From a virus, in IMG/VR virus record IMGVR_UViG_3300017751_000011, positions 1 through 64,000 of that record: 64,000 nt of DNA; one strand, given 5' to 3'. The notes below the pieces were generated by a model, which saw only the letters and a program-made list of their open reading frames with translations, was not told the DNA's origin and searched no databases. This document shows, in pieces, positions 11,813 to 59,293 of this stretch (within the stretch, counting starts at the first letter, position 1; each line of letters begins with the position of its first letter). The position numbers and the translations under genes were made by a program.

Positions 11813-11828
11813 GCTGTACCTTGCCCAT

Positions 11829-15677: not shown

Positions 15678-15727
15678 GTATATTTGCATTGTTACGCCGA
15701 CCTAGTGCAGTGTAATTTCGCTACCGA

Positions 15728-15758: not shown

Positions 15759-16200
15759 ACTTCTTGACTTTTTCTATGGTCCTTCCCGCGAAGTAAGCTC
15801 CAAACACCGTCAGCATAAGGATCTCAAGTAGATTGATGTAGTTTTCTGGGGGCATGAACTGTGGGTCTAGGCCGTCCCAAATCATCATTATCATATAAAA
15901 AGCCGTCAAGGATATAAGGATCGCAGGACGAATGTACTTAGCTAGTTTCACGTCTGACTTAGCATCAGCCTCCCACCTCCTTGTGACTTGCTCTTGTGCT
16001 TGGGCCTCCATCTCGTTTACGAGGCGGTCAAACTCAAGCTTATCCTGAGCAGACAATTCTGGAGAGCCGTCCACGACGCGCTTTAACACGCCTAGTACGC
16101 CTTGATCTGGCAGGATGTCCCCTACACTGCCAGCGACTTCGGGAAGCTTCTCTCTTAGAAACCTCCCGACTTTCGTGTCTTTAAAGGGCTTATCTGGCAT
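15757..16200 (-). CDS. holin-like membrane protein (GTA-holin 3TM-like, putative)
   Basis: Charged N-terminal half, then RRWEADAKSDVKLAKYIRPAILISLTAFYMIMMIW and a second helix LLEILMLTVFGAYFAG. Last gene of the late arm. Confidence 0.4.
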   Translation of the reverse strand: MPDKPFKDTKVGRFLREKLPEVAGSVGDILPDQGVLGVLKRVVDGSPELSAQDKLEFDRLVNEMEAQAQEQVTRRWEADAKSDVKLAKYIRPAILISLTAFYMIMMIWDGLDPQFMPPENYINLLEILMLTVFGAYFAGRTIEKVKK

Positions 16201-19200: not shown

Positions 19201-22200
19201 TTCCTGCTGCGTCCACAAACAAGTGTTCTCTGAACGGGTTAAACATGGCCTTAACTCCACTATAATCACTATCATCAATGCCTTCTGACTTAAACTGTCC
19301 TTGCACTGCCGCCATAGGGAATTTGTTTTCCTGAAAGGTGACAATCTTTTCTCTAGCTCCTTGGTTTACAGCGAGCTCTACGTTAGTTAAAGTGACGGCC
19401 CCAGAGTACCTCAGAGCTTTTCCAGTTGCTGACTTGTCGTGAACGGTTTGCACAGGGACACCTGTATTCTTCTTTACGTTTAAGTTGAGCCTGACGGCTA
19501 TTTTTTGACCGACTTCTACTTTGTTTTTTTCCTCTATAATTCTTATAGACGTTTTATCTGTAGCCAAAGCCTCGTCTACCATCCTGTCGGTCATGACAGA
19601 GCCTCCCTTAACTGAGGCCGCCTCTTTAACTTCTCTGTCTTTAAACAACGGTGAGTCAGAAGATTCGACTACTTGATCAGACTCTCCTGGGTCAATAGGG
19701 TCAAACAGCATGGCCGCCCTCTCTGAACTAATTCCTGAGGAGTTATTAATAGCCTTTATGCTGTTCTTTCCTTCACTTTCTAGGTCGAGGTTTTTAAGGT
19801 CAAACGCATCTACATCAGATAGAACTTGATCTGTCAAGTCTGCGTAAGACTCATACCCAAGCTCTCCATCTGCCATATACCCCATCTCTTCCTGCATAAC
19901 CTCCCAAATGGACTGCTGAACGTGGTACGCAGTCCATTTCTTTTCCCCCCTTCCTCTACCTTCATTAAGAAGCTTTACTGCACTTTTAATGGATTCTTTA
20001 CTAAGGGTGTCATTGACTTTAAGATCGCCGTAGATACTTTCTCTACCCATGAGTCTCCACAGGGCTTTTGATAGCCTCCGATTCTCTGAAACCCCATCAA
20101 ATATCTTTCTCCCCGCTTTCATGGCAGCGATAGCTCTGGCAGCTTTGTTTTTAAATGCGTAATCGGATTCGGAGAGGCCTACCTCGTTTTTAAGGTAGTT
20201 GTCAATAGCCTCTTCTGTTATACCCAGCTCCTCTACAAGAGCTTCAGCCCCCTTTACAGCTTCTGGATTTACAAATGTCTCTCCAGTAAGAGGCGTGAAG
20301 TTGCCTTGGAAAACGTGAAAGAACTTACGTACCCAATTTTCTTTATGCAAGTAAGCCCTCTCCCCCTTGCCCATCAGTCCAGCGGCGTGTTCACCCGTCT
20401 TTTCTGCGTCACTACTACCCATGATGAACCTAGACTGGATGGCATCTTTACCTGACTTCTTCCTAGAGTACCTTTTAGCCATAGCCTTAGAGTTAAAATT
20501 GACCCCGTCCCAATATTTGTTTGCGTCAGATAGAATATTCTGTATGGAAGTGACTACAGCACCTACTCTCTGTTGGTTTACATCATCCTTTTTTACTATA
20601 AATTCTGTATTGCTTTCACGTAAGGCTTTATAGACAGACTCGGAAACGGCTTCAGAAGGCTTTTTACCTTTTGCGATACCCGTCAAGTACGAGCGATAAA
20701 CAACAAGGGCTACCCTAAGGTTAGCTTCTGCTTTAGCCCCGTTAGATGTTGTAGCGAGAATAGCGGCGAATACACCAAAGTGGTCCCTATGGTTCTCAGG
20801 GATCATCTCCGCTGGCAAAGAGGACTCTATGAAGTCTGACACTTTGTCAAATGACTCCTTTACTTCCCCGTCTATCTCTCTAATGTCTTTTCCGTTTCTC
20901 TTTACTCTTGTTCCGTTGTGATATATTATTAGCGGAACAATATCAGAGGCTATGCTTAAGGGTTTTCTTTCTCCGTCAGAAACCATTGGAGCCATAGCGT
21001 TAAATACCGTATTTAGATTTCCGCCTCCTTTTGTTATTGCACAATCAAATGCAACTCCACCGCAAATTTTTCTTTTAGAAGCCTCTAAAATCTTATCTCT
21101 TTTTTCCTGCTGGTTTATACCCTGGTCTCTAGCAATATCCATAGGCTCCATAGAAGCCCTTTCGGTAGCTATGTCGTCACCATCCTCTTTTTTTCTTAAC
21201 CCAAAGTGCTCTTCGATCGCCATCCTGAGCTTAGAAAGAACCTCTGGATCTGTGTATTTTGAAACCTCGAAAGAAGTCTCTCCTCCTACAGGAGGGGAAT
21301 ATATGTTTTCCTTACCTTCCTTAGAAGCTATAAACTCTGCGCCAAATAACTCTATTGCAATCTTATCTAGTAACTTTTGCTTTCCGTCGTTGGACCTTTC
21401 TTCAATGCTCATGTTTTCATAGAGCAGAGTGTTTATGAGGGTGCTTTCTTTATTTCTGTTTCTGTTTCTTTCTTCTGCTATTTGTGTCGGAGTCCTTTTT
21501 GTCGCAGGCGGCTTCATGTTCCACTTAAGCATGACGTCAACATTCAGGGCGTAGTCCTTACCGTCAATCGTAACAGAGAAAGACCCAAAGGGAAGCTTTC
21601 CCATTCTTGTGGCTCTTTTCCACCAGTTTATAAAATGCCACTTTCCGTTAAACTCTTGAGTTTTTATAACCGTTCCTACCTGAATTCCCACGGTCTCTTT
21701 GCTCCCATATGTTGGGGCGGAATACATAACTTCAAACTTTCCGTTTTCTGGAAGCTTTGACACAGACATAGGTCTCTTTGAAGAGTAAGAAGCCCTTTCA
21801 GCTGTTTTTCCTACTGTAGGCCCTACAGAAACTCCTACACCAGACTTATGTACTTGAGACATGGCTCCCAGAAGCTGTTCTGCGCTAGATACGTCTGTAA
21901 TAACGTAATCCTTAGGGGCGCCAATCGTCTTGAACATATTGTTCATCAGCACTCTGACCTTGTCAAAGAAGGTGTCTTTTGCCTTTTGGTCAACCCCCTC
22001 CCAAACATCAGCAAGTTCTGAGGTAATCTCAAAGACCGACTCTTCAAATATTATTGCGTCTGCCTCCTCTTGAGTAAACCTTCTGTTGCCCTTTTTATCA
22101 GTGCTGTCATACAACTTTCTATATGCTTCCTCTTTTGCTGCTACTTTCTGCTGTATGTTTTTGTTAGGGTGTAACTTAGCCAGCGCTTTTAGGTCGGACA

Positions 22201-25200
22201 GGAGTTTAAGGGCAGAAGCTTTATCTTTCTTAAACAGCAAGTTTAAGTGAGGACCAATCATAGCGTGTTGAACCTCTTCAAGCATAACAGACTCAAAAGA
22301 TTTATCACTATTTGCCGCCTTCCTTGTAATCAAAGCAGGGTTGACGTGGATCACAATGCCCCCATTGTTGTAAGAGACGTAGTACCCGTTTATCTCGTTT
22401 TTGCCGACTCCGTCAGCCCTGTTACCTGACTCTTCTGTGTTATGTACCCTAATGGTTACTGGCCTCCCTTGAGCACCAAGATTCATTATTGTTCTACTCA
22501 ACTTGCCGTTGATAAACCTGGCCATCCTTTTCGTCAAAGGTCCCCTAGGTAGCACCGAAGTAGTCCCGTCCTTGTTGGCCGAGTAGTCTGAGAACTGCCC
22601 GTTTATACCTCTTTCGTCTGACTTAGACTCCTCCTCTGGGGCCTCCTCTACTTCCTGCTCTGTCTCTACTTCCTGCTCTACTTCCTGCTCTACTTCCGCT
22701 TCTTGGCTAACCTTAGATTCACTTATAGCTTTAGCCTCCGCCGCTTCATAAGAGTCAAACATTACCCCCTCCCCTACTTTGCCTTCTCCTTTTACAAAGA
22801 AGACAACATCAGGTTTGCTTTTAAGTGGAGAATTTTCTGCGTCCCAACCTTCTTTGGCATACTCCTCATTAAATGGCGTCCTAGACACGGGCTTAAATCC
22901 GTTTTTTACATAAATGTCCTCAAGCTTTGTGGCATACGCATCGAAGTAAGTTCCTCCCTCTTTAATTCTTCTGGACTGCATCGCCGCAGAAACACCTTTC
23001 TGCTTAGAATCAGGAGACTTAAAAAGGCCTCCCATGTATCCATCTCCCTTCAGGTAAGATCCCGACAGGCCATCGCTTGACAGGTACAGCTTACCCCCGT
23101 TAGCAACTATCTCTCTTGCTGTTTCTATCGACACAGGGTCAACCTGCATAAATAAGTTTTTGCCCGTCTCTTGGTCCCTTTTTCTAGCCTCGTCAAAAGC
23201 TTTTACATACTCTTCAGGAGTTGTAGTCGTGATACCGTCTTCTTCTTGTTCAATGTCGTCTTCAGTCGTCACTTCAGCTTCCACTTCAGCCTCAAACCCT
23301 TTAATCCCCATGTAGTTAAGCAGCTCTTGCTCCGCTCTTTTTACTTTTTCATTGGCTGCTTTTAGTCTGTTCTTGTTTTTCTGAGTGTCACTAGCAGAAG
23401 CCTTTTCTTTCGCTTTCTCGGACTCATTAATCAACCCCTGCACTTCTCCGACGAGACGCATAGATTCATCTCTAGTCTGCTTAGACTCTTCGTATTTAGA
23501 CTTAGACAGCCTAAGGGCATCTGGGTCAGATGATTTAGTATTGGAAGCGGCTTCGTGGTCGTCTAGGGCCTGCCTACGAGCCTTGACTTCATCATTCATC
23601 TCCCCCATCCTCTTGGAAATGTTAGCCCTGTTTACCGTTTGAGTCTCTTCTTCCGTAAGGGTCAGAGATTCATCCTTGAAGGAGTTAAACAAAGTACTTC
23701 TCTGCTCAACTACTTGCTTAAACTCTTGGCTCATCTTGTCAAGGGCGGCCTGGTCTTCTTCAGTAACAGCTTCTCCTTCTGAGTACTTGGAGTAGATGGC
23801 TTCAGCTTTTTTGGACATAGAGGCTAAAGACGCATCCATCTTAGCAAGCTTTCCGAAAGCAGATTCGTGCCTGAGCCTAATAACTTGATATAAGGCCTGA
23901 TTTTTTGATCTGTGCTTAGAGACCTCTCCAGAAGTCTTTCCGTAAGACTCCCTACTCTCTCCAGACATAACTGGCTCAGAGCCCTCTACCTCTACTTCAG
24001 AAGAGCTTGGATCTGCCACTGAGTTTACAGCAGCTTGAGGCCCAGTAACAACATCGGAGGGAACTCCAAGTATAGCTCTTCCTGACCTTACCCCTCCGAT
24101 CGGAGATCCCGCAGCTCCAAGAAACCCAGTTCCTACAGCTCCCGCTACAAATGCGTCATAAGCTTCAGCAAGGCCTTCGTTAAGGCTTTGAGTACTATTA
24201 CCCATCTTCGTCTCCATGACGTGCTGAGCGAAGCTCTCTACAAATTCCTGAGTTCCCTCTCCAAGGGCGTCTATTCCCTGCCCAACTAAGTAGGCACTCA
24301 TGGCCTTCTTGGTGGTAACCTTGGATAGGTCTCCAGAAAAAATCTTTCTTACAGCAGAGTTGGTAAGACTTGTCCCTGCCTTTCCAATAACCCTTTGCCC
24401 TACACCAGCCATAATAGCACCGCTTCCAGCCTGTATAGAGCCTATACCCAAAGACATGGCCATCCGCTGAGCATTAGCCCCTAAAGAAAAAGGGTCGAAT
24501 ATAGGAGCAAGCCCTTTTTGGACTCTGTTAAAGTCCTCCCTTTCGCTATCGATGTAGGTGTTTAGAGTACCTAACGTTCCAAATACGACTGGAGCAGCAC
24601 CGCCAGACACTGCGCCAACAGCCAAATAAGGCAGAACTGCGCCACCTTCTTGGCTTGCTCTTGCGAGGTCGTGACCCAAATGATTTAGAGTTCCTAAAAC
24701 ACCATCCGCATCGATGCCCTCCCCTTTACTGAAGTAATCGTGATCTTGATAATCACGAGTCTCCATGTTCGACGCCATGTCCTCAATAGTCTGATCGACA
24801 AACCTAGTAAAGGCAGCTGTGTCTTCTTCACCAAAAAGCCCTGCACCCATACCTGCTAGTGCAGAGATAGGCCCGCTAAGCATCTGAGCGGCAGCTGATC
24901 CAGCAGAATTGATAAAACTGCTTATAATACCTACGTCTTCATTGTATACGTTGTCTCCATCTAGGTTGATTCTAAGCCCACCTTTGGTCAGGTCATATAC
25001 CTCTTCTGAAAGCTCTTCTAAGTAATCAGCATCCTCTCTCTCTTCATCTGAAAGACCCTCAAGAATTTCTTCTTTGTAGTCGTTCATTTTATCGCGCATG
25101 AAATCGGAAGAGTTCAGCATGAACAGCCTATTGAACTCCTGCTCAAACATGGCCTTAGTATACTCTCCGCTTTTTAGCTTCTCCTGCATGTCCAGGATTT

Positions 25201-25903
25201 GCTGCTTGTACTCGGAGTTGTTCTTCATCATCTGCTCATGAGATGACGCATAGTCTTTCTTTATTTGCCCAGAGTAATGAGAAGATATGGACTGTACCCT
25301 TGCCCTTTTTTGGGCGGCCATTTCTTTGTCTTCATCGACAGTAAAGTACTTCTTATTCTGTTCTTCTTTAAACTTAGAGTCGTAGAACTTGGCGTATTCT
25401 GATCGTGCGAGACCGATCTTTTCTTTATTGCCTTCATTAAGGCCGTCCCCAAAGACGTCTTCCCTTGTTACGCCGTTTCCAAGCTTGCCCTTTCCAATCG
25501 CCCAGTCAACAGCGTCTTTTGTGTATGCGGCCTCCATCTCCGACTTATCGAACATGTTTACATCCTCGTGCGCACCCGTGTTAAGACTGTAGCTTCTCCA
25601 CTGCTGAATTTCGGGCTTAAGACTGCTTGACTGCAGTGTTGGATTTAGAATGGTATTCTCTTTGACCTCACTCTTTTCTGACTCTTCTGAAGACAACGCT
25701 GACGCTCCACCCGAAGATGTTGAACGCATAAATTCTCCCGTTGCCACCACCTCTTTTTTTTTTGACTCAAGGCCAACCAAGGATCTAGCTTCGCTTGGCT
25801 GTAGTGCATATTTAGAATTATACGTTAAAACATTAGCGATGTACTCGTCAGACTTTCCGCGAGACCTCATACTTGCTATTATCTTTTGATAATCCTGTTC
25901 CAT
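16190..25903 (-). CDS. giant virion protein (3237 aa), putative polyvalent internal or ejection protein
   Basis: Single uninterrupted 9.7-kb ORF. It has Gly/Ala-rich hydrophobic stretches, long charged coiled-coil-like segments and an acidic EQEV repeat. It sits where podovirus-like gene orders place internal core proteins. Confidence 0.8.
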   Translation of the reverse strand: MEQDYQKIIASMRSRGKSDEYIANVLTYNSKYALQPSEARSLVGLESKKKEVVATGEFMRSTSSGGASALSSEESEKSEVKENTILNPTLQSSSLKPEIQQWRSYSLNTGAHEDVNMFDKSEMEAAYTKDAVDWAIGKGKLGNGVTREDVFGDGLNEGNKEKIGLARSEYAKFYDSKFKEEQNKKYFTVDEDKEMAAQKRARVQSISSHYSGQIKKDYASSHEQMMKNNSEYKQQILDMQEKLKSGEYTKAMFEQEFNRLFMLNSSDFMRDKMNDYKEEILEGLSDEEREDADYLEELSEEVYDLTKGGLRINLDGDNVYNEDVGIISSFINSAGSAAAQMLSGPISALAGMGAGLFGEEDTAAFTRFVDQTIEDMASNMETRDYQDHDYFSKGEGIDADGVLGTLNHLGHDLARASQEGGAVLPYLAVGAVSGGAAPVVFGTLGTLNTYIDSEREDFNRVQKGLAPIFDPFSLGANAQRMAMSLGIGSIQAGSGAIMAGVGQRVIGKAGTSLTNSAVRKIFSGDLSKVTTKKAMSAYLVGQGIDALGEGTQEFVESFAQHVMETKMGNSTQSLNEGLAEAYDAFVAGAVGTGFLGAAGSPIGGVRSGRAILGVPSDVVTGPQAAVNSVADPSSSEVEVEGSEPVMSGESRESYGKTSGEVSKHRSKNQALYQVIRLRHESAFGKLAKMDASLASMSKKAEAIYSKYSEGEAVTEEDQAALDKMSQEFKQVVEQRSTLFNSFKDESLTLTEEETQTVNRANISKRMGEMNDEVKARRQALDDHEAASNTKSSDPDALRLSKSKYEESKQTRDESMRLVGEVQGLINESEKAKEKASASDTQKNKNRLKAANEKVKRAEQELLNYMGIKGFEAEVEAEVTTEDDIEQEEDGITTTTPEEYVKAFDEARKRDQETGKNLFMQVDPVSIETAREIVANGGKLYLSSDGLSGSYLKGDGYMGGLFKSPDSKQKGVSAAMQSRRIKEGGTYFDAYATKLEDIYVKNGFKPVSRTPFNEEYAKEGWDAENSPLKSKPDVVFFVKGEGKVGEGVMFDSYEAAEAKAISESKVSQEAEVEQEVEQEVETEQEVEEAPEEESKSDERGINGQFSDYSANKDGTTSVLPRGPLTKRMARFINGKLSRTIMNLGAQGRPVTIRVHNTEESGNRADGVGKNEINGYYVSYNNGGIVIHVNPALITRKAANSDKSFESVMLEEVQHAMIGPHLNLLFKKDKASALKLLSDLKALAKLHPNKNIQQKVAAKEEAYRKLYDSTDKKGNRRFTQEEADAIIFEESVFEITSELADVWEGVDQKAKDTFFDKVRVLMNNMFKTIGAPKDYVITDVSSAEQLLGAMSQVHKSGVGVSVGPTVGKTAERASYSSKRPMSVSKLPENGKFEVMYSAPTYGSKETVGIQVGTVIKTQEFNGKWHFINWWKRATRMGKLPFGSFSVTIDGKDYALNVDVMLKWNMKPPATKRTPTQIAEERNRNRNKESTLINTLLYENMSIEERSNDGKQKLLDKIAIELFGAEFIASKEGKENIYSPPVGGETSFEVSKYTDPEVLSKLRMAIEEHFGLRKKEDGDDIATERASMEPMDIARDQGINQQEKRDKILEASKRKICGGVAFDCAITKGGGNLNTVFNAMAPMVSDGERKPLSIASDIVPLIIYHNGTRVKRNGKDIREIDGEVKESFDKVSDFIESSLPAEMIPENHRDHFGVFAAILATTSNGAKAEANLRVALVVYRSYLTGIAKGKKPSEAVSESVYKALRESNTEFIVKKDDVNQQRVGAVVTSIQNILSDANKYWDGVNFNSKAMAKRYSRKKSGKDAIQSRFIMGSSDAEKTGEHAAGLMGKGERAYLHKENWVRKFFHVFQGNFTPLTGETFVNPEAVKGAEALVEELGITEEAIDNYLKNEVGLSESDYAFKNKAARAIAAMKAGRKIFDGVSENRRLSKALWRLMGRESIYGDLKVNDTLSKESIKSAVKLLNEGRGRGEKKWTAYHVQQSIWEVMQEEMGYMADGELGYESYADLTDQVLSDVDAFDLKNLDLESEGKNSIKAINNSSGISSERAAMLFDPIDPGESDQVVESSDSPLFKDREVKEAASVKGGSVMTDRMVDEALATDKTSIRIIEEKNKVEVGQKIAVRLNLNVKKNTGVPVQTVHDKSATGKALRYSGAVTLTNVELAVNQGAREKIVTFQENKFPMAAVQGQFKSEGIDDSDYSGVKAMFNPFREHLFVDAAGRAIKSAEEATVVGNNVYLRGKIEYYSLNDPILQRGKIESPKGKAKRVMRGAKYDKSVNRFKAYAERVLQMEFPNREALESAYDAMPLGSKVALEESTVAENMQTAQERASISSYTKGKKIRKTAEKQSRKFYGSTRADIVQNPENYITPQNLKQLKAEVSDMGDQELINLMTDESIGRLSQKNDDLGVLAGAEMIRRAIARGETERIPSLVAELAAIGTTAGRILRHFRELKSGTPAGLYSIVNSAVENQGNKLSDEQGARLKALTEKLFVEQAKADDLLKRAVGGEEVDAELQAAVDALKKTERDLEGFTNSMVGKGWGTLFGQLVQGNLLTTMSQVVNIGANMVNAVASVAVNSVSLPFEAALVKVGQAMGKEVEISRRPSLNAYMYAVRKFGMGFVEAADQVVTGQDRELSEWRIARGLAPLRSLKAAYKGDLPLGPDGKGSLDQRMKLFVQGTLGIPAETMFRLLSLGDIPFRRFAEGVDLYQSALSMGLEGEALKRFLKYPTARELESAKRQGRKLTFQEETSASENVNRVVSALEGMVGRPLNAMGLNGDEFSRALFRVILPFRSTPANILYETFTWVNPYIGTARMASELRKGDVEESSKTLAKMMMGAVTMEAALMMISEGIMSGPVKWDEDEEKNMAYDIFPPSSVNVSALRRLIAGEDASHKEDDYFVRYDKLGMFGAIMSTAVQAMDSEELKEREYSSPIQFTSHTISDFFGAGSVSAISAMMEQSFVQGLNEFMKVLTGDNAERDLENLITTMFKAGSAAVIPNQLNAFYRADRDYLPDGRVSKDQEFWERLSSKFAYTIKDRTFGLSDYPVRVNWKGEDISQTPRGASGIGYQLFDITKSRQGTADPLSNEIWRLYENTEEFTGVCGTPSYASTRKFSVPNITSKKDKKMVRSMGRNYTWIKDEEFMAERIYLTTEQINRLMKISGQARHKEATEIIQTRKYQNSNDEERIELLNKVADNYNSAKEYGRNGYRQHTVALFDIMQELYDAR

Positions 25904-27996: not shown

Positions 27997-30900
27997 TTAT
28001 TGCTGTCCTAGCGAGTGATCTTGATCAGATTGCGCAACATGGGTGTTCACGCAATACAATTCAAACGCATCAGCATTATTGTTAGTTAGTGTTATCTCTG
28101 CCCAGTGTCCACGGACTGGGTCTCCGTTTATAGCAGCCTCAGAGATTGCTACAAGATCCCCGTCAACAATCCCGCTCTGTGTAGGAGCCCCATCTACCTC
28201 GATTGTGTAAGCGTCGACAAACCTAACAAAAGTAACATCAATGTCACCTCCACCTAAGTTGGTGTACGCCCCTCCAGATACAAGCCTTATTACGCTTCCG
28301 TATGGTATAGAATTTCTGTTCACTTTATTAACAAAAGTGATTTGAGATACGAACGAGTTTACCGAAGCCACCCTGCCTACGCCTGTAATGTGCTTCGTGC
28401 CGTTCTCGTCCCTAGTGATAAACGAGTAGTAGCTCCCCTCTTTTTCTATAAACCCTAAAGACTGAGCGTTGCTATTAAGGTCCGTAACTATTGGATCTGC
28501 AACCCAGTTAGGACTATTACCCTCTAGAGACACTGCATTGAACACCTTGGTCATACTAGGGTTGCTATTGCTGGCGATCTTTACAACAGAGTTCCCAAAC
28601 GTCCCGTAGAAAGTATTGTAATCCGACTCATTGTCATGAGAGAAAAACAATTCCGCGTTGTTTGCACTAGCAGGGTCATTGTAGTAAGCCGAATACATAG
28701 TCCCGTTTTGGTCCGCATACATGTCTGGAAAGAACGTATACCTGCTTTGCCACACCCCCGCACTTACATTATACCCCAAAGTGAGTCCGTCGAACGAACC
28801 TGACTCCCTAAGAGTAACGTAGTACTGATTGTCTTCTGGGTCATAACCACTTACAATGCGAGTACCCCCCTGAGCTTCAAACAAGTCAATGTTGGTTTTA
28901 AACAACGAGTCTACCCCGTTCTCAGATATAGGCGACATACCCTCTGATGTAAGCCTTACAAGCTTCTTCCGAGAAGTGTCTACAAAGAAAGCGTTACCAT
29001 CTCGAATAAGGACAGATTCGGGGTTGTCACCACAACCGAAATCCCCAGAGTAGTACGCTGGAGTATTTAGCACTTGAGTACTGAGAGATATAATTCCACT
29101 TGTATTTGGGGAGGTGATTATGTCTTTTCCTATTGGAACCCTAGCCACCCTATTCTCTTGAATAGCAAGAAGGTAGTCATCTCTAAAATTACCGATGTAG
29201 TTGCAAGCTCCATTAGCTGAGTCAAGACTAAAGAAGTTTGCTAAACTGGGGTTGAATGATGATAGTGAAAGGCTTGACACATCTTCTGCGTAAGCGTCAC
29301 TGTACGTTATTCCGTTATACCTTCTTACCTCCTCTGCGTCTTCAAATACAGCGTGAGGTCTCCCTTTATTCCAGTCTGTAAGCGGTCTTTTTTCGCTTGG
29401 ATTAGAGGTCTCTACAGGGAGCGTTCTATACTCCCAGTCCTCTGAGCTTAGGGGGTTCCATGTTGATCCAGTGGCATCGTAAACTGGAGACTTACAAGAA
29501 ATGGGCTTATTGAAAACGTCTCCGTTGTAAAGGTCTATAAAGCTTCCATGAGCGTTTACATTGTCATTGTCTTTCCTCACTCCTGCTAAAGCTCCATGAC
29601 CAATTTCATAGTACGCGACATTCTCATCTATCGTTTTCGGGGTGAATATCTCCACTACGGTCTGCTGAGGCCACTTGTTTGAACTGGATGCTGCTGCCCC
29701 GCTGGTCCGTGGTTGGCCTGTTATGTCAAACCAGTCGAAGCCATTGTACTTACCTATACCTGCGGCGATTTCTGGGGCCTCCAAAATCAAGAACGTCCCC
29801 GTCTTTTCTACTGCGACATCTCCAGCTCCACCGCTAGACCCATCATATCCTACTATCGGGTTTGTTTTAGAGTCGTTTCCAAGAACCTCTACCCCAACGA
29901 CATCGAACTCTATAGGATTGTCAGCTCCACCGCCATCATTTTGAGAAAGAGGGTATACCGTAGAGTCGTCAGTTTCCGCCCTGTGGCTTATCACCCTGAG
30001 CTTATCGCCCTTTGTAAAGCTGTATGACCTAGATGAAGGCTTTTCTTTATTGTATATGTCTAGCGTCTTCAAAGAAACGTACAGCCTCTTTGAGTTGGTG
30101 TCAAGAGCGGTAGTAAACTCACCATCTTTACCATTAGCTCCGTTTCTTTTTCTGGCCCCAAACGCGCCTCCAGCTGTGTATTGAGTAAATTCTCCAACAG
30201 ATGCTCTTCCAGAGTAAACAATCTGATACCTACTTGCCCAAGAAGGAGGGGTAAAATTATCGCTAAATGTTACTCTTACGCTGGCAGCTCCCTTTGGAGA
30301 CGTGCTTCGTTCAGCTGGTGTCGGGACATAAATGCTACCAATTTTGTTTACAAACCCAGACCTATTGAACTCGTCGTAATACACAATACCAAAATTGTGA
30401 GTGCTGCCAGACTTAAACCCAGATACACTCTCCATTGTTACAGCTGAAGCTGACTGATTTGCTACTTCAGATGCACCCCCAGTAATCGAAAAGTCTGATG
30501 CCTCGTCCATCCCCGAGACCAATACGTCTCCAAGATCACCTCCTGTAACCGTTCTATCGTTGGCTACAAAGTTAACCTCATCAAACGACACCCTGGATAT
30601 CCTAGTTTTTATTACAAGCTGAGCTTTTGCCGCGTCTGTGTTTGTAGCCGCAGTAATATCATCTAGCTTATAAAACACTTTAAACTCAGATGTCGAAGAG
30701 GTTGTAGCAACCAAAGTACTACCAGCGTCAGGAGCTAAAGAAAAGGTAGTCTCCGAACTCATGTCATAACGGACAGGAGCCTCAGGAAGCTGTTCTATTA
30801 CGTTTTTTAGTGCATCCCTAACCCCTTGTACATTTGTGTCAGACGGGGTTGTGTAAGATATATTTACGGATATAGGCGGATTAGAGCCATTTGTGTTGGT

Positions 30901-32409
30901 GTCAACCTCCTCAGGAGAAAGGTCAAGAGTGCTTCTACTTGCCGTTCCTGTATGAATAACTTGGGGGCTAGACGTGTTGTCTATCTGGGTTACAGGAAAA
31001 GATACAAGAGAGCCTCCAGTACCTGACTTAGCTACGCTAGTTGCTGTTGGCTGTATTGTAAAAGACAGCCTTATTTTAGTACCACCAGCTACGGGTGTTT
31101 GAGAAGTGGCTGAAGATCCAAACGCATCACCTCCGAGAAGATCAATGTCTACCTCTTGAGTGTTTTGCCCTCCCTGTTTAATTACGCTTGCGGCATCGCC
31201 TGAAGGTATCAAAGAACTACCCTCTGTGTTTTCACTGGAGTAATTTACGCTTAGTTGAATGTCTCCGCTTGTAATTTCAGAGTTAGGCCTACCTTCAAGG
31301 TAACTAGAGTACATTAATCTTCCTCCACTTAATGATTGGCCTACAGCTAAAAGCGGCACATTGTCGTAAAGTTTATTTGTGGTAAAGTCAGAAACTGAGG
31401 GTCCCGTTCTATCGTTGTAAAACTTGTATACTCCTGTGGCGGAATCATACAAGGTGTTTGTGTTTCCAAAAACACTTCTTACAAAATTTACCTTTGGATC
31501 AAACTGGTCAACCACATAAAATGCACCCAAATTTCCTTTTCTAGCAAGCAACCTTACCTTTTCTACGTCGTGTTTGTAAGGATTTATGTTTAGGCTTATC
31601 TCGCATACATTGTCAGATAATGCAGACAAACTAGGGGTGCTGGTTGATTCGGTATGCTCGATATGACCCAATGAAAGCCCCCTTCCTACAGCCAATGCTG
31701 AGTAAGGTGATATAGCCGACTCTTCACCGTCTATATACTTATACTGAGTTGCAAACTGAAAAACACTGTCTAAAAACCCGTTGCTTTTTACGGTTAAGTC
31801 ACTTGCAAAGGAAAAATCAGGGCTTCTCGTTTCTGCGCCTTTTATGACCTCTATAGATCTCTTTTTTTGTAGGCCCACCTCCCCGTCATAGCCCCCAGAA
31901 ATAGCCCTATCTACATTAATTTTTCTTGGGGGGTTAATGTTATCGGTAAAGTACAAAATAGACTCAGTCTGACCGTCTTGCTGAAAAGCGGCATTTACTA
32001 TGTCTGCCTTTACAAAACCACCTGAGTTAAAATCCAAAAAAGCTCCCTTAACAACAACTCTATACTTTCCTGTAGTAAAGGAGGCGCTATCCTCATTTGA
32101 CGCATTGTACTGGTATATAGCGTCTTCGGAGTCTCCAGAATTGTCTGAAACAAACCAATAGACGTACCCCCTCTGGGGGTCAGAAACGCTGCCAATGACA
32201 GTTACCTCATCACCATCCGCTACTCTGTCTGCTCCATTAAGCGGTGTGCCAGCAATCGTGCCCCTGACGTTCTTGATGATGCCAGAAGAGCTACTTCCCC
32301 CTTCTGCTATAGTGACGTTCTGGGCGTCAAGCATTTCCCCAGCTTCGGGGCGCACAAGCCTCTGGTCAGCGTCTGCTTGGAGTCTGTTCGGGATAGTCTT
32401 ATCGATCAT
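27997..32409 (-). CDS. large virion structural protein (1470 aa), tail or nozzle-like (putative)
   Basis: Long ORF rich in Ser/Thr/Gly/Asn, predicted beta-rich. Lies between the head-proximal genes and the internal-protein genes. Confidence 0.7.
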   Translation of the reverse strand: MIDKTIPNRLQADADQRLVRPEAGEMLDAQNVTIAEGGSSSSGIIKNVRGTIAGTPLNGADRVADGDEVTVIGSVSDPQRGYVYWFVSDNSGDSEDAIYQYNASNEDSASFTTGKYRVVVKGAFLDFNSGGFVKADIVNAAFQQDGQTESILYFTDNINPPRKINVDRAISGGYDGEVGLQKKRSIEVIKGAETRSPDFSFASDLTVKSNGFLDSVFQFATQYKYIDGEESAISPYSALAVGRGLSLGHIEHTESTSTPSLSALSDNVCEISLNINPYKHDVEKVRLLARKGNLGAFYVVDQFDPKVNFVRSVFGNTNTLYDSATGVYKFYNDRTGPSVSDFTTNKLYDNVPLLAVGQSLSGGRLMYSSYLEGRPNSEITSGDIQLSVNYSSENTEGSSLIPSGDAASVIKQGGQNTQEVDIDLLGGDAFGSSATSQTPVAGGTKIRLSFTIQPTATSVAKSGTGGSLVSFPVTQIDNTSSPQVIHTGTASRSTLDLSPEEVDTNTNGSNPPISVNISYTTPSDTNVQGVRDALKNVIEQLPEAPVRYDMSSETTFSLAPDAGSTLVATTSSTSEFKVFYKLDDITAATNTDAAKAQLVIKTRISRVSFDEVNFVANDRTVTGGDLGDVLVSGMDEASDFSITGGASEVANQSASAVTMESVSGFKSGSTHNFGIVYYDEFNRSGFVNKIGSIYVPTPAERSTSPKGAASVRVTFSDNFTPPSWASRYQIVYSGRASVGEFTQYTAGGAFGARKRNGANGKDGEFTTALDTNSKRLYVSLKTLDIYNKEKPSSRSYSFTKGDKLRVISHRAETDDSTVYPLSQNDGGGADNPIEFDVVGVEVLGNDSKTNPIVGYDGSSGGAGDVAVEKTGTFLILEAPEIAAGIGKYNGFDWFDITGQPRTSGAAASSSNKWPQQTVVEIFTPKTIDENVAYYEIGHGALAGVRKDNDNVNAHGSFIDLYNGDVFNKPISCKSPVYDATGSTWNPLSSEDWEYRTLPVETSNPSEKRPLTDWNKGRPHAVFEDAEEVRRYNGITYSDAYAEDVSSLSLSSFNPSLANFFSLDSANGACNYIGNFRDDYLLAIQENRVARVPIGKDIITSPNTSGIISLSTQVLNTPAYYSGDFGCGDNPESVLIRDGNAFFVDTSRKKLVRLTSEGMSPISENGVDSLFKTNIDLFEAQGGTRIVSGYDPEDNQYYVTLRESGSFDGLTLGYNVSAGVWQSRYTFFPDMYADQNGTMYSAYYNDPASANNAELFFSHDNESDYNTFYGTFGNSVVKIASNSNPSMTKVFNAVSLEGNSPNWVADPIVTDLNSNAQSLGFIEKEGSYYSFITRDENGTKHITGVGRVASVNSFVSQITFVNKVNRNSIPYGSVIRLVSGGAYTNLGGGDIDVTFVRFVDAYTIEVDGAPTQSGIVDGDLVAISEAAINGDPVRGHWAEITLTNNNADAFELYCVNTHVAQSDQDHSLGQQ

Positions 32410-54882: not shown

Positions 54883-57000
54883 CTAGCGATGCCACTCTTT
54901 TATCTTAGACTTCCTGAAAAACTTCTTGTCGTTGAAATTCGAGGTCTTTTTTAATTGCTTTGATTTTTGAGCAGCAAGAAGAGCCAACCCAGAACTTATT
55001 GTAAGGTCATACTTTGTTCTGTTGGTTATTTTGTACCCTATCCAGTCCTCTAAAGTCCTGTTAAAATACATGTTCCCGAAGTCAGCTGTTTCTGGCTTTA
55101 CACCTACGTGATTATGAATATATGTTTCTATCGCATGAGCATGAGCCTGAATAACGTCCTGAGAGTTAGAGGGTATTCCTTTTGTTTTCACGTTTGATTT
55201 CGTATTAGCCGAAAGCAAGTGAGCTGGCCTATCCATTAAATATCCATCATATCCTCTTGTCTCAAAATACCGAACTATACCGTATTTGTTGTTTTCTACA
55301 AGTAATGGATATCCGTAGTAGAAAGAAGCCATTAAAACGTCTTCATAGAAAATGCTGGCTAAGTCTGGTCTTGAGGCGTACTCCAGAACAAACATGCTGT
55401 CTGGAAAATCACTGTTCATACTAAACTTGTTATACAAATGAAGGGCTCCTTTAGATCCCCTTCCGTCAACCGTCTCATCCAAGTCATACGAGTCTACACC
55501 CCCAACACCATACTGGTAATTTAAAGGCTTTTTCTTTCCTCTATCTTCAGTATACTTGTTTCTATGGCTGGTCGGTGGTTGCCAAGACAGCTTAAATCTC
55601 CCCCGTGGGTCGGGTGAAAATATAACCTCTTTGTCTTTCACCTTCCACATAAAGTTTCCAGTGACTACTGGGTCAGGGTAAAGGTTGTTATTCCAATCAA
55701 CCTGCTGGTATATTTTTCCAATATTGAATATACTCCCCTCTATGCTGTCTCGAAACGCCTCCTCTTCCGTAAGAGGGAATTGTCTTATGACCTCGTTAAG
55801 TTCAGATGGATCGTGGTTTAAGCTCTGTCTTTCGTTTTTTAAATACTCTAGACTGCCCTGCCCTACCATCTCCCCATCTACCCCCATAACCTGATTTCCA
55901 TCAGACAGGCTATCCAAAACAGGATTGCCATACTCATCAAAAAACCCTTCAAGAGCATAAGAAGCAGGGATAAAAATACGATATAGGCCGCTTCGGGTTC
56001 TTCCGTTCGCGTTTCTTTCTCCTGGGTCTGAGTCCTCCCAAAGGTTTTTATATTCTTCACCTCCTTTATTCATTGGGTTGACGGTGCTGCCAACCATTGC
56101 TTTTCCCACTACCCTTTTACCAACGATAAGACATGTCCTTTCAATTCTCCATGCCTCCTTTATGTCTACTGGCTTCTCCCATTTTCCTGCCTCGTCGAGG
56201 TACAGCATGTGCAGCTTTTCTCCGTCGTAGGCATTATTGGTTGTGTTTTTCCAGTTGATGATAGTGTTGAGAGCGTCCCCCTTTTGTGACGTCTTATTCT
56301 TCTTGGTGATTCGTTTTGATGGTTCCCGAAAAGCGAGTTCCATACGTGGGTTCGTAGTGCCATCCTGAATAGGTTTAAAGAAGAATGGGTAACTCCGAAA
56401 CATCGGAATTACTTTCTTCATGAATATATTCTCCTGAGCATCCTTACCAGTCTTTGACTGGATGCCCAAGAGCTTGTCTTTAACTTGCGTAGCCTCGTCA
56501 ACAAGTACAGAGGCACAGATATTAGTATAGCCAGAACGCCTACACTTAGTATATAGCTGACCGATACAACGGGAATCAGCTTCACACGCAGCCATGTGAA
56601 TAAATATCTCACGCTGGAAGGCAAGGTACGAAGGAAATCCGATATCAATCTTACTCCACTGAAGGAACATATAGTGCCTCCCTGTAATGTACGTAGGCAA
56701 GCCATTGTTGTAAAACCAAACACCGTTACGCCTGCGCTCAAACTCCTTTTCGATATAAGCAGAAAACTTCTTTCGAAATTCGGAAGGCTTTTCGAACCAC
56801 TCATCCATACTTCTAACCCTCGACAACTCCTGGGGCATAGGTATGCGTTTCCACATCTGCATCCCTTTTGGCTTGTCATGGAAGAGTATTTCAGATCGCT
56901 TTGGCTTTTTCGGAAGACCAATGTCAAGGCCGTGGAACTCAAGTACCTCTCCTTTTTTGCCCTCAGGGTCCAGCCAAATAGTGTCATCGGACTTGTCCAT
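54883..57000 (-). CDS. terL: terminase large subunit
   Basis: Walker A-like CRRSGYTN, Walker B MLYLDEAGK and nuclease-region GVGGVDSYD. Length 705 aa, located upstream of the portal. Confidence 0.8.
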   Translation of the reverse strand: MDKSDDTIWLDPEGKKGEVLEFHGLDIGLPKKPKRSEILFHDKPKGMQMWKRIPMPQELSRVRSMDEWFEKPSEFRKKFSAYIEKEFERRRNGVWFYNNGLPTYITGRHYMFLQWSKIDIGFPSYLAFQREIFIHMAACEADSRCIGQLYTKCRRSGYTNICASVLVDEATQVKDKLLGIQSKTGKDAQENIFMKKVIPMFRSYPFFFKPIQDGTTNPRMELAFREPSKRITKKNKTSQKGDALNTIINWKNTTNNAYDGEKLHMLYLDEAGKWEKPVDIKEAWRIERTCLIVGKRVVGKAMVGSTVNPMNKGGEEYKNLWEDSDPGERNANGRTRSGLYRIFIPASYALEGFFDEYGNPVLDSLSDGNQVMGVDGEMVGQGSLEYLKNERQSLNHDPSELNEVIRQFPLTEEEAFRDSIEGSIFNIGKIYQQVDWNNNLYPDPVVTGNFMWKVKDKEVIFSPDPRGRFKLSWQPPTSHRNKYTEDRGKKKPLNYQYGVGGVDSYDLDETVDGRGSKGALHLYNKFSMNSDFPDSMFVLEYASRPDLASIFYEDVLMASFYYGYPLLVENNKYGIVRYFETRGYDGYLMDRPAHLLSANTKSNVKTKGIPSNSQDVIQAHAHAIETYIHNHVGVKPETADFGNMYFNRTLEDWIGYKITNRTKYDLTISSGLALLAAQKSKQLKKTSNFNDKKFFRKSKIKEWHR

Positions 57001-57163
57001 ACCTGTTGCTTCTAAATGAAGGGACCCCAGACTTTTTGTCTAATAGCTCCATGTACTTGCCGCATTCACACTTTACGTCGTGGCGGACAACACCGTCTAT
57101 AACCTTAATGGTTACCCCAGACACTTCAGACTCCTTCCCGCACTCACACTTGTATTTACTCAT
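56984..57163 (-). CDS. zinc-ribbon protein (59 aa, not in ORF track)
   Basis: Hand translation gives MSKYKCECGKESEV...VKCECGKYMELLDKK..., with two CxCG knuckles. Overlaps the terL start by 17 nt. Confidence 0.5.
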   Translation of the reverse strand: MSKYKCECGKESEVSGVTIKVIDGVVRHDVKCECGKYMELLDKKSGVPSFRSNRYGQVR

Positions 57164-57177
57164 TATAAATTTAATTG

Positions 57178-57251
57178 TACCCCCACCTGGACTCGAACCA
57201 GGGACCTACAGCTTAGAAGGCTGTTGCTCTATCCAGCTGAGCTATAGAGGC
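57178..57251 (-). tRNA. tRNA-Arg (anticodon UCU)
   Basis: Acceptor GCCTCTA/TGGGGGT (three G-U pairs), D arm GCTC-AGCTGGATA-GAGC, anticodon arm ACAGC-CTTCTAA-GCTGT, T arm CCTGG-TTCGAGT-CCAGG. Confidence 0.85.
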
Positions 57252-57256
57252 GTAAG

Positions 57257-58567
57257 TTAATTAACTAAAGTTACACTCCCTTTAAGTCTTATCGACACTT
57301 CCCTTTCCCCCCTAGCGTTTATAATCCAGGAATAAACTCCGTTAGGCGAGTAGTGACTTCCCTCATAAACAGACCCGTCCCACTTTTTAGACGGGTCATC
57401 CGACCTAAATACTATGTCTCCCCATCTACTGAACACAATCATTTCCCACTCTATCCAGTGATTAGGATCTTGTGTCACAGCAAAAAAGGCATCGTTTACA
57501 CCGTCGTTATTGGGTGAAAAAGCATTAGGCACATATATAACTTGCTCTTGTCCTATTCCTGGGGGGTCCTCGTCACAAAGGTCCCCTGTGATACAATCGA
57601 TCCATATTTCTTGGACTACGTATTCGTATATGGTGTCTTTTTGATACACATATGTGGTGTCAAAAACGTATGTGGTGTCGTTTACATACACGTATGTGGT
57701 GTCATATATATACTCTGACTCATACAAAGTATCTGTCAAATACACCTCTATTGTATCGGGAGGCAGCTCTACATACTGAGTCAAAGTATCTACTTGATAC
57801 ACAGTATCCGTAGTGTAGTACCATACGTCAATATACAGGGTGTCAGTTAAATACGTGGTGTCGTTAAAGTAATACTCTATGGTGTCTGGGGGTAGCTCTA
57901 CATAAACTGTATCTACTACATAAATCGGATCTTCCTGTTCGCAGGACACCCACCAGTTTTCAAGCTCCTGGTCAGGATACGAGCCTGTAGAGCCCCACTC
58001 AGTTCCATCCCCGTTGACTCCTGTAGTAGCCCATCCTCCATCGGCAGCATACCATGTATTGGAGTAGTTTATTTGCCAAACTACAATCTCAATGCACTCA
58101 CCTAAGCCGACCCAATAGTCTATAAACTGTGGGGCGCAGCAGCTCTGTCCCCCCGTCAGAAAAGGGTCGTTCTCACAGTCCGTTTCATAGGGGTTGTCTA
58201 ACTGCATTACCACCGTGTCTCCAGAGTACAGCGGCATATCTATATCAAAGTCACTTCCCCAGTTACTGAGCATGGAGTTTAAGCTGACCCCATAAGTCCA
58301 TCCCAAGTGATTGGAATTGGGTGACATATCACAAGGCCCAGGGGGGTCCCAAGCCTCATCAACCCCTGGGACGTGCATCCCAATCATCAGCATGTTTATT
58401 GCCCCTGAAGTAGCCTGATAGCCCTGCATTCCGCAACCTTCGCTATTGACTATCTCTAGAGTCACCTCGTAGGTGTTTAAGTTGACGTCAATAATGTCTA
58501 CATCACATTGGGCAGAAGAAGCGGTACTCAACACAAGTAGACAAATGGCAAATAGTCTTTCTTTCAT
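57257..58567 (-). CDS. secreted protein with T9SS type-B C-terminal sorting domain (gliding-motility-associated CTD)
   Basis: Signal peptide MKERLFAICLLVLSTASSAQ. C-terminus VPNAFSPNNDGVNDAFF...VFSRWGDIVF...KWDGS...SPNGVYSW...KGSVTLVN matches the PNvFTPNGDGiND...NRWG...WdG...G.Y TIGR04131-type pattern. The central region has DT(T/L)Y(V/I) repeats. The track start at 58576 is a TTG; the first ATG is at 58567. Confidence 0.8.
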   Translation of the reverse strand: MKERLFAICLLVLSTASSAQCDVDIIDVNLNTYEVTLEIVNSEGCGMQGYQATSGAINMLMIGMHVPGVDEAWDPPGPCDMSPNSNHLGWTYGVSLNSMLSNWGSDFDIDMPLYSGDTVVMQLDNPYETDCENDPFLTGGQSCCAPQFIDYWVGLGECIEIVVWQINYSNTWYAADGGWATTGVNGDGTEWGSTGSYPDQELENWWVSCEQEDPIYVVDTVYVELPPDTIEYYFNDTTYLTDTLYIDVWYYTTDTVYQVDTLTQYVELPPDTIEVYLTDTLYESEYIYDTTYVYVNDTTYVFDTTYVYQKDTIYEYVVQEIWIDCITGDLCDEDPPGIGQEQVIYVPNAFSPNNDGVNDAFFAVTQDPNHWIEWEMIVFSRWGDIVFRSDDPSKKWDGSVYEGSHYSPNGVYSWIINARGEREVSIRLKGSVTLVN

Positions 58568-58581
58568 TCTATTCAATTATG

Positions 58582-58658
58582 TCGGCGAGGTGGGGATTGA
58601 ACCCACATGTGACCGATTACTCTTTCTACAAGATATAAGCTTGAGGAGATACTCACCG
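58582..58658 (-). pseudogene. degenerate tRNA (tRNA remnant)
   Basis: Intact 7-bp acceptor stem CGGTGAG/CTCGCCG (one G-U) and canonical T arm GTGGG-TTCAATC-CCCAC. No D arm or 5-bp anticodon stem can be drawn in the 45 nt between them. Confidence 0.5.
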
Positions 58659-58664: not shown

Positions 58665-58883
58665 TCACTTACTGCTTCTTTTTTTAGGCCTGTTGTTTGC
58701 CCTGTTTAAAGAAGCCTTAATAAATCTCTTTATCTTACCACCTTCGTGAGCGGCGTCCAAGCCATCACCGTTACCATACGTCCCCTTTTTTCGGTTATGC
58801 TGATTGAGTTCCGCTCGGTACTTTTTAGCAGCCTCGGTTTTACCGTACTTTTCATACTCTTTTTTGTAATTCCTAGCTTTCAT
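58665..58883 (-). CDS. small basic protein (72 aa; alternative GTG start at 58973)
   Basis: MKARNYKKEYEKYGKTEAAKKYRAELNQHNRKKGTYGNGDGLDAAHEGG... Confidence 0.55.
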   Translation of the reverse strand: MKARNYKKEYEKYGKTEAAKKYRAELNQHNRKKGTYGNGDGLDAAHEGGKIKRFIKASLNRANNRPKKRSSK

Positions 58884-58969
58884 ACTCTCCGTTCCATTCC
58901 TCGTTAAAGTAAACGTGGTTATTGTTAAGCGAAGATACCCAATTAAATGATCCAGAATATAGAGTATGG

Positions 58970-59293
58970 TCACTTGCTGAATTTCTCCGCAAACCCTCCT
59001 GAGTAGTCTTTATCTTCTTCAATTTTTCCATTTTCGCTTAGTTCTTTCACCATTTGCTCAAGAGATTGTCTTTCTCTAATTAAGTCCTTGCAGTCTACAG
59101 CGGTCTGCTTAACTGACTGAAGTTCTGCCTTGCGAGCGCTTCCGTTTACGTCCTGGTCTACAGGTTTTTTCACTTCTTCAATCATGTTCGATATAGCTAT
59201 AGCCATAGCGTCCATAAGCTTTATTGCGGCCTCAAGGGTGCTGAACCTTGTAGAGGAGTTCCGAGATCGCGACCCTGTAGTATTCTTTGTCAT
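58970..59293 (-). CDS. hypothetical protein (107 aa; alternative start 59215)
   Basis: The track start at 59296 is a TTG; ATG at 59293. Overlaps the 3' end of the upstream gene. Confidence 0.5.
   Translation of the reverse strand: MTKNTTGSRSRNSSTRFSTLEAAIKLMDAMAIAISNMIEEVKKPVDQDVNGSARKAELQSVKQTAVDCKDLIRERQSLEQMVKELSENGKIEEDKDYSGGFAEKFSK

Follow-up and report, generated by a model that had tools for sequence, protein, structure and literature searches.

The subject of this report is a gene on the minus strand of IMG/VR virus record IMGVR_UViG_3300017751_000011, of which positions 1 to 64,000 were analysed (this whole 64,000-nt stretch is referred to as the window). The gene, called the cargo gene below, encodes a 436-aa protein that combines a predicted Sec signal peptide, an N-terminal domain (N-domain), a repeat stalk and a type-B C-terminal sorting domain (CTD) of the secretion system of type IX (T9SS). 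On the minus strand, in 5' to 3' order, a 102-aa open reading frame (ORF) is followed after 6 nt by a tRNA-like element and after another 14 nt by the 436-aa ORF; 5 nt further on lies tRNA-Arg(UCU) and, after ~13 nt, a 59-aa ORF and the gene for the large terminase subunit (TerL). An earlier note on this DNA had proposed a single gene with signal peptide, DTxY repeats and type-B CTD, and all of these features were found at the positions assigned to them, beyond chance expectation. The tRNA-Arg(UCU) that had been placed at one flank was likewise recovered, 5 nt past the stop codon, by both ARAGORN and Rfam (66.7 bits). The features of the locus are as follows:

58665..58973, minus strand: 102-aa ORF, upstream edge of the slot that holds the cargo gene (phrog_6437, function unknown, E=2.4e-13; synteny across relatives)
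58582..58658, minus strand: 77-nt D-arm-less tRNA-Ile(UAU)-like RNA, 14 nt upstream of the ATG (match to the Rfam tRNA model)
57257..58567, minus strand: accessory gene for a predicted exported protein of 436 aa, from the ATG at 58567, which is the more likely start
57257..58576, minus strand: the same ORF from an alternative TTG start (439 aa, from the ORF list)
58511..58567, minus strand: N-terminal part, predicted Sec signal peptide, residues 1-19 (read from the sequence)
57926..58510, minus strand: N-domain, residues 20-214, 195 aa (AlphaFold2 model and family alignment)
57602..57925, minus strand: repeat stalk, residues 215-322, 108 aa (12 D-T-(V/I/L/T) units)
57260..57601, minus strand: Cys-containing linker (WIDCxTGxxC) and predicted type-B T9SS sorting domain (PF13585, TIGR04131)
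57177..57251, minus strand: canonical tRNA-Arg(UCU)
56984..57163, minus strand: conserved 59-aa ORF, downstream edge of the slot (synteny; between tRNA-Arg and TerL)
54883..57000, minus strand: TerL (phrog_6681, E=6e-213)

The N-terminus of the 436-aa protein reads as a signal peptide with K2 and R4 in the n-region, a hydrophobic core (AICLLVLSTA) and the junction SSA|Q, where cleavage would expose Q20. Across 119 family members, the residues just after the hydrophobic segment include an invariant Cys and a Gln and an Asp that are each at least 90% conserved. The conserved Q-C-D that follows the predicted signal peptide fits the Bacteroidetes Q-rule for signal peptidase I substrates (PMC5837995). 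At the other end of the protein, the Pfam model CHU_C (PF13585) matches profile positions 2-77 of 86 with 54.1 bits and E=1.7e-14 (cutoff 27 bits; nt ~57299-57535), and TIGR04131 is matched by all 28 aligned family members (best E=1e-12), so that the model searches that had been proposed for this domain came out in favour of a type-B CTD. Five conserved motifs, A-E, are required in the CTD for secretion of type-B cargo (PMC12618676). The conserved blocks of the family CTD, namely PNxFxPxNDGxND, (N/S)RWG, WDG, GVY and a terminal G-x-V-T, are all present. Among the GTDB matches listed, the closest cellular CTDs belong to Flavobacteriales metagenome-assembled genomes (MAGs), with up to 47% identity. 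In a search of the window ORFs, the 436-aa ORF was the sole one with a type-B CTD, and no second CTD protein was found elsewhere in the window. Judged by its sequence, the protein is a Sec and T9SS type-B cargo carried by a phage, and we consider it quite probable that it is exported as an accessory protein of the T9SS type.

Type-B cargo needs cognate PorP/SprF-like shuttles, which are scarce and limiting, and a cognate shuttle gene adjoins 9 of the 12 type-B substrates of Flavobacterium johnsoniae (PMC12618676). The immediate neighbours of the cargo gene are tRNA genes and small ORFs, with no adjacent shuttle gene. A PorP/SprF match (PF11751) was found neither among 10 window ORFs of 254-472 aa, which include shuttle-sized candidates, nor beside five homologues in the gene tables of loci L003-L009. 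Since no PorP/SprF gene was found on the phage, a shuttle of the host would have to be used, and the lack of an adjacent shuttle gene makes the protein an “orphan” cargo like Fjoh_1123, Fjoh_1720 or Fjoh_4934.

Between signal peptide and CTD lie two regions for which scans of Pfam, NCBIfam, PHROG and PADLOC gave no match to any passenger domain. The first, the N-domain, takes the form of a beta-sandwich with a single long helix in an AlphaFold2 (AF2) model that has a predicted local distance difference test score (pLDDT) of 88.5 and a predicted template modelling score of 0.87. Cys and Trp are conserved in this domain, and the family has invariant Trp, Tyr and Cys residues. A Foldseek search of the PDB with the N-domain model gave no match at E<0.001, the full-length model had none beyond weak matches to generic beta-sandwiches (best E=2.2e-4), and a sequence and profile search of the PDB yielded 0 matches for the N-domain. 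Structural matches of the N-domain in BFVD are family members only, one of which is auto-named [quoted passage not shown]. A phmmer search of the N-domain against 1.84 billion representatives matched 28 cluster representatives. According to the model, the head of the protein is a novel beta-sandwich with no known relative outside the family.

The second region, the stalk, had been described as a DT(T/L)Y(V/I) repeat; a repeat is indeed present, and its motif is more specifically D-T-(V/I/L/T). Its 108 residues contain 12 D-T-[VILT] units, compared with 1.2 +/- 1.0 in shuffled sequences, and the whole protein contains 13 sequons where 2.2 +/- 1.4 are expected (maximum of 8 in 2000 shuffles). 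TRF detects periods of 24/42 nt in the repeat region, and the AF2 pLDDT is ~25 across the stalk. The high density is a property of the family, whose members carry a median of 13.5 sequons (range 7-22) and in which ~85% of the residues following D-[ST] are I, V, L or T. The O-glycosylation sequon of Bacteroidota is D(S/T)(A/I/L/V/M/T); among O-glycoproteins, T9SS cargo forms the main class, and glycosylation requires export (PMC8550257). The stalk motif is a match to this general sequon in a protein that is itself predicted to be exported, and dense O-glycosylation of the stalk is somewhat favoured over its absence.

Pairwise comparison with close alleles gave ratios of nonsynonymous to synonymous substitutions (dN/dS) of 0.02-0.11 in N-domain, stalk and CTD alike. 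These values rule out a pseudogene or decaying gene and mark the cargo gene as functional and under purifying selection; diversifying selection inside the allele group was not seen in these pairwise ratios. Just upstream of the gene, neither a sigma-70-like nor a Bacteroidota -7 motif was found, no convincing terminator lies 3' of it, and the promoter and terminator of its own that would characterise a moron are therefore missing. On the minus strand, no Bacteroidota -7-type motif occurs between 54876 and 61386. The spacers of 14 and 5 nt, together with the absence of an own promoter and terminator, suggest co-transcription with neighbouring genes and tRNA-type processing. Elsewhere on the minus strand of the window, Bacteroidota -7 promoter-like motifs (TATATTTG or TANNTTTG) were observed at 54869, 43179, 39240, 38161, 33990, 27988, 25923 and 61386, a few to ~130 nt 5' of the downstream late-gene starts and mostly within ~25 nt. 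Only their placement is suggestive, because their total in the window is at chance level (45 compared with 43 expected).

The accessory status of the gene was assessed in relatives that were sampled by TerL (75-89% identity), a choice that is unbiased as to the cargo gene. Fifty-five of these loci span the slot between the GroES-like gene and TerL, and the cargo gene was found in only three of them (L170, L174 and L175). The minimal slot measures 205-405 nt, and in most loci only tRNA-Arg lies inside. While tRNA-Arg(tct) is present in nearly all 55 loci, with or without the cargo gene, tRNA-Ile(tat) occurs in many. Across the larger slots, the cargo comprises glycosyltransferases of GT2/GT4-like type, an epimerase and an aminotransferase, proteins resembling acyl- and formyl-transferases, HNH endonucleases, a MazG-like protein and a small ORF that is lipoprotein-like. 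In the Flavobacterium “elemo” phages and MW202828 (TerL identity 41-47%), which are without the cargo gene, GroES leads to TerL directly or via one small ORF. Judged by these contents, the slot forms an island for surface-polysaccharide modification in marine podophages that are apparently lytic, and the variably present cargo gene is an accessory, moron-type gene at a predicted gene-exchange hot spot. At the edges of the slot, the 59-aa ORF is 57-92% identical in the relatives that have it and always lies just 5' of TerL; library scans gave no family match for it. As a further observation, the slot reaches 5.8 kb in some relatives (L214, L217, L221, L223, L229, L178, L197 and others), and slots of this class also contain NAD-epimerase, DegT-like aminotransferase and acetyl-, formyl- and sulfo-transferase-like genes.

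The earlier note had taken the gene for a moron inserted at a tRNA array and had suggested comparing synteny among related phages. Variable presence in a tRNA-containing hot spot is borne out by the 3 of 55 relatives, while the idea of a mobile tRNA-gene-tRNA cassette was discarded, as the tRNAs are a feature of the slot and also occur where the cargo gene is missing. Moreover, the position of the gene relative to the tRNAs varies: it lies between the tRNA-Ile-like element and tRNA-Arg in the window and upstream of both in L175, and L174 has no tRNA-Arg. In family members of other phage lineages, the flanking tRNAs are absent.

Homologues of the protein are numerous, with 522 proteins at E<=0.001, many of them full length, and 294 IMG/VR loci that encode relatives. 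In ~55 of 87 fetched loci with the cargo-gene family, the gene occupies the same slot. Its identity between loci (33-93%) does not track that of TerL (69-89%), which indicates that diversity arises by the exchange of distant alleles. Other carriers include groups whose TerL is ~47% and ~20% identical, a phage of ~110 kb and a circular contig of 292 kb. The ~110-kb phage encodes ribonucleotide reductase (RNR), queuosine-pathway genes, Thy1 and PolB, and its homologue has an M43 peptidase and a fasciclin protein as neighbours. All carrier contexts that were inspected looked like phage, among them contigs of 110, 146 and 292 kb and a contig of an “Akkermansiaceae” MAG, whose copy lies on the same phage type as the ~110-kb phage. 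In a scan of 185,579 GTDB species genomes that included the N-terminal pattern, the N-domain was absent from the matches listed, which comprised the CTD only. A recent capture from a host was rejected as an origin on these grounds, together with the phage-like appearance of the supposed cellular carriers. On present comparisons, the family is a maintained one that occurs in phage-like contexts only and in several unrelated phage types, and it does not represent a one-off host capture. One such contig, L367 (GCA_028033555.1, JAOFDD010000001.1), is 73 kb long, binned as Akkermansiaceae and evidently phage (RNR, holin, queuosine genes, Thy1, PolB); at 6509-16065 it carries genes for a fasciclin protein, an M43 metallopeptidase, a CTD-family homologue and a 926-aa SusC-like TonB-dependent receptor, and L005 is similar.

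The second flank of the cargo gene is formed by the 77-nt element, which had been considered a decayed tRNA. Its Rfam tRNA score of 26.3 bits is below the gathering score of 29, the D-arm is deleted in the alignment, and ARAGORN made no call in standard, mitochondrial or relaxed, low-threshold modes. Without a D-arm, the element does not form a four-arm cloverleaf. Decay is contradicted by its conservation: the element is identical at 77 of 77 positions in L010-L012, where the synonymous divergence (dS) of the neighbouring gene is 0.39-1.18, and a 24-nt core of it is found in exact form in at least 120 IMG/VR stretches, all viral contigs. A covariance model built for the element, which scores the window copy at 107.6 bits, collected 89 copies with 59 distinct sequences; of these copies, 88 have a length of exactly 77 nt. 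In the 59 variants, 98.4% of cells are paired and compensatory (double) changes occur in 17 of 19 pairs, compared with 38-51% pairing in slid controls. With neither neutral decay nor loss of pairing, a tRNA pseudogene or remnant was excluded, and the element reads as a conserved, structured, D-arm-less tRNA-Ile-like RNA that appears to be under selection.

The fold begins with a 7-bp acceptor stem followed by U8-A9 and a 3-bp helix (11-13 with 37-39) around the anticodon hairpin, whose 7-nt loop CUUAUAY contains the anticodon UAU, U33 and R37. On the 3' side of the hairpin, a conserved connector (UAAnnGGUnACAU) leads to a canonical T-arm, with a 5-bp T-stem and a UUCRANY loop, and to the discriminator A73. 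D-arm-less mitochondrial tRNA-Ser(AGY) has an extended anticodon helix and keeps acceptor stem, T-arm and anticodon loop (PMC4013460, PMC9427863). The element resembles it in each of these respects. However, the known cases are metazoan mitochondrial, whereas the element sits in phage tRNA arrays and differs further in its canonical T-loop, its constant length of 77 nt and its conserved GG-containing 3' connector. Literature searches for D-arm-less phage tRNAs found nothing. A canonical tRNA lies within 150 nt on the same strand at 47 of 86 element loci, in arrays of up to 25 tRNAs; a canonical tRNA-Ile(tat) is also present at only 2 of the 86. In the clade of the window, the element and canonical tRNA-Ile(tat) alternate at the same position (tRNA-Ile in L004, L173 and others), and ATA accounts for 39% of the phage Ile codons.

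Several side observations concern the same element. Copies with a GAU anticodon (L321:4396-4472 and L299:2956-3032) have the loop CUGAUAA/C, covarying anticodon stems and no D-arm, and their shared architecture suggests that the fold is used for more than one Ile anticodon. Further copies were found at L188:4463-4539, L192:5611-5687, L022:4484-4560 and in L248-L326. At L233:2005-2549, the element gives way after its first ~26 nt to a 150-aa HNH endonuclease ORF, which at its 3' end overlaps a second, divergent full-length element (41.8 bits, with both sides of 5 of 7 acceptor pairs changed); a homing endonuclease seems to have inserted at the anticodon loop and to have brought a replacement copy with it. 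L004:4576-4715, between canonical tRNA-Ile and the CTD-family gene, has room for an uncalled small, very basic ORF (MAKQLSNYTEKKKVNRPGVHSKTK...). L004 and the window share the motif AATT(C/G)AATA(C/G)AATG just 3' of the tRNA or element.

It is tentatively proposed, at less than even odds, that the element is a working, rearranged tRNA-Ile in which the strand that made up the 5' side of the former D-stem pairs downstream of the anticodon hairpin, giving a three-way junction. This putative tRNA of marine phages would read AUA (anticodon UAU) and, in rare variants, AUC/AUU (GAU); together with tRNA-Arg it would bracket the gene of a putative T9SS type-B glycoprotein so closely that tRNA processing could punctuate the mRNA. 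Since standard tRNA finders miss the element, phage tRNA inventories and arguments from codon usage may be systematically incomplete.

The phage itself has no near-identical counterpart in INPHARED. Its nearest deposited relatives by TerL are a Manatee Spring podovirus (47% identity) and the Flavobacterium “elemo” and Cellulophaga phages (~41%), and at least 599 TerL relatives are present in IMG/VR. For the portal, the match is phrog_6547; upstream of the cargo gene lie genes for a GroES-like protein and an M15 endolysin. As the nearest phages include those of Flavobacterium and Cellulophaga and the closest cellular CTDs are found in Flavobacteriales MAGs, the window most likely represents a marine podophage clade that infects Flavobacteriia. 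Two large minus-strand ORFs bear other domains: a 1470-aa ORF (window 27997-32409) has the C-terminal domain of the crAss muzzle protein (PF25729) and a 3237-aa ORF (window 16190-25903) a Phage_L5_gp82 domain, which links the marine clade to crAss-like podophage architecture. Additional tRNAs, Met(cat) and Arg(cct), lie away from the slot in the early or plus-strand region (window 3158-3231 and 4057-4129, plus strand).

Phage-borne T9SS cargo is not without precedent, as three type-A T9SS cargo genes were reported from “Cryophage” and called a unique occurrence (Bellas et al. 2020, Nat Commun, PMC7468147). Both cases involve phage-encoded T9SS sorting domains that vary between phage variants, and for the Cryophage cargo, too, a change of the host surface or superinfection exclusion was proposed (PMC7468147). 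Cryophage, however, is a single phage whose type-A CTDs (PorV shuttle, anchoring to anionic lipopolysaccharide) are attached to recognisable enzymes and a PA14 domain. The family described here differs from it, as far as sequence comparison goes, in its type-B orphan CTD, its novel head, seen only in phage contexts, its stalk with a sequon array and its hundreds of members in several lineages. With the F. johnsoniae orphans and SprB it shares a Sec signal and a TIGR04131-type CTD. The orphans Fjoh_1123, 1720 and 4934 have no adjacent porP/sprF, their shuttle is encoded elsewhere and they are predicted surface adhesins (PMC12618676); in contrast, the cargo gene is a phage gene with an unrelated passenger, its shuttle would come from the host genome and its secretion is a prediction from sequence. 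The same sequons are borne by TfsA and TfsB of Tannerella forsythia, T9SS cargo glycosylated at D(S/T)(A/I/L/V/M/T), with 19 of 20 sites occupied in TfsB (PMC8550257). TfsA and TfsB are type-A S-layer proteins with dispersed sites, whereas the phage protein has 12 sequons in 108 aa in a periodic DTxY pattern, and its glycosylation is predicted.

In the mechanism envisaged here, the cargo gene would be co-transcribed late with the endolysin-GroES-terminase unit, and with the flanking tRNA and tRNA-like genes only 5 and 14 nt away, tRNA processing could release its mRNA. The protein would then be exported by Sec, signal peptidase I would expose Gln20, and Gln20 would be cyclised as the Bacteroidetes Q-rule predicts. 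In the periplasm, the general O-glycosylation of the host would decorate the ~12 D-T-(V/I/L/T) sequons of the stalk. After passage through the host T9SS, a host shuttle would collect and anchor the protein, and the outcome would be a novel beta-sandwich head shown on a glycosylated stalk at the surface of the infected cell. The purpose of this envelope remodelling may be to keep other phages from adsorbing, or to keep progeny from attaching to infected cells and debris. Phage morons that alter the cell surface and stop further adsorption include the T5 lipoprotein Llp and O-antigen glycosyltransferases of the P22/epsilon15 type. These are accessory genes too, and glycosyltransferases occur in the same slot of relatives; the cargo protein differs from them in its predicted T9SS export route and its lack of sequence or fold similarity, and its role is a proposal. 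T9SS-dependent surface adhesins such as SprB and RemA are thought to be receptors of flavophages, and T9SS mutants are broadly phage resistant (PMC9804748). Together with the glycan-modifying cargo in the same slot, this makes envelope remodelling the most coherent function.

An accessory, T9SS-displayed, glycosylated envelope-remodelling protein is the interpretation favoured for the gene as a whole, with a probability of roughly 60%. As to what the remodelling achieves, the roles raised at the outset (superinfection exclusion, receptor masking, altered gliding or adhesion) are plausible, and the first two, taken as the function, are a possibility that we put at about one chance in three. Several points weigh against the favoured interpretation. 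With TIGR04131, the protein itself scores 34.3 bits, just short of the cutoff of 35, and it ends in ...LVN where the family usually ends in ...R. No cultured phage in INPHARED has the cargo-gene family, and host and lifestyle of the phage are things that we infer. Absence of the N-domain from cells rests on the GTDB matches listed and is not proof, and the PDB fold and sequence searches with the N-domain gave no clue to a ligand. Since Tyr, too, is conserved in the DTxY period, the stalk may consist of a structural beta-repeat in which the sequon match is incidental. Finally, overproduced type-B CTD fusions stay unsecreted unless a shuttle is co-expressed (PMC12618676), so that an orphan phage cargo might stay periplasmic or jam the system.

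This last point leads to the strongest of the alternatives, which is nonetheless unlikely: a decoy, produced late and in bulk, whose orphan CTD titrates PorP/SprF-like shuttles or occupies SprA. As a consequence, SprB-like type-B adhesins would fail to reach the surface, gliding would stop and receptors would be removed. The limiting abundance of shuttles, the behaviour of the overproduced fusions, the lack of a shuttle gene found on the phage, the presumed receptor role of SprB and RemA and the broad phage resistance of T9SS mutants would all suit such a role. A decoy would need the CTD alone, however, and N-domain and stalk are selected as strongly as the CTD (dN/dS 0.02-0.08), with the N-domain conserved across the family. 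In another alternative, the protein would serve as an adhesin of the infected cell, with the head binding a glycan or surface so that infected cells stick to particles, algae or neighbouring host cells; this would raise transmission and not block other phages. A beta-sandwich head with invariant Trp, Tyr and Cys on a long stalk is in keeping with this, as is the other-lineage homologue beside genes for a fasciclin-domain protein, an M43 peptidase and a TonB-dependent receptor, but PDB fold and sequence searches gave no match to a known adhesin or carbohydrate-binding fold, and we regard this role as decidedly unlikely. Were the protein an enzyme (or an auxiliary metabolic protein) released through the T9SS, for instance a depolymerase or a hydrolase, it would parallel the glycoside hydrolases of Cryophage, the sole precedent for phage T9SS cargo, which consists of enzymes (PMC7468147). 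This is very improbable for a protein that has no Pfam, NCBIfam, PHROG or PADLOC match outside the CTD, whose confident model is a small beta-sandwich without a catalytic-fold match and whose type-B class is typically retained at the surface. That the protein is instead a receptor-binding or decoration protein of the virion, its CHU_C-like domain being merely an Ig-like module, is suggested by the late, co-oriented gene block adjoining the packaging genes, but has very little chance given the conserved cleavable signal peptide that obeys the Q-rule, the presence in only 3 of 55 close relatives, the location among nucleotide-metabolism genes in other phages and the lack of a PHROG match, which makes a conserved virion role unlikely.

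Both parts of the locus have implications beyond the window. The 77-nt element suggests that phage tRNA arrays contain a class of non-cloverleaf tRNA-Ile that has gone unrecognised, and it is perhaps the more novel item of the two. If it decodes, a family of D-arm-less decoding tRNAs would be known for the first time outside metazoan mitochondria, and the shape of the element might evade host tRNA-targeting defences or dependence on TilS. Regarding the protein, Flavobacteriia are major degraders of marine organic matter, and their T9SS surface proteins drive gliding and adhesion. The packed sequon array suggests that phages also exploit host protein glycosylation, and if the favoured interpretation is true, the family would offer a natural probe of how type-B signals select their shuttles. 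It would also mean that phages routinely reprogram the surface of Flavobacteriia from within, by means of a widespread orphan type-B cargo.

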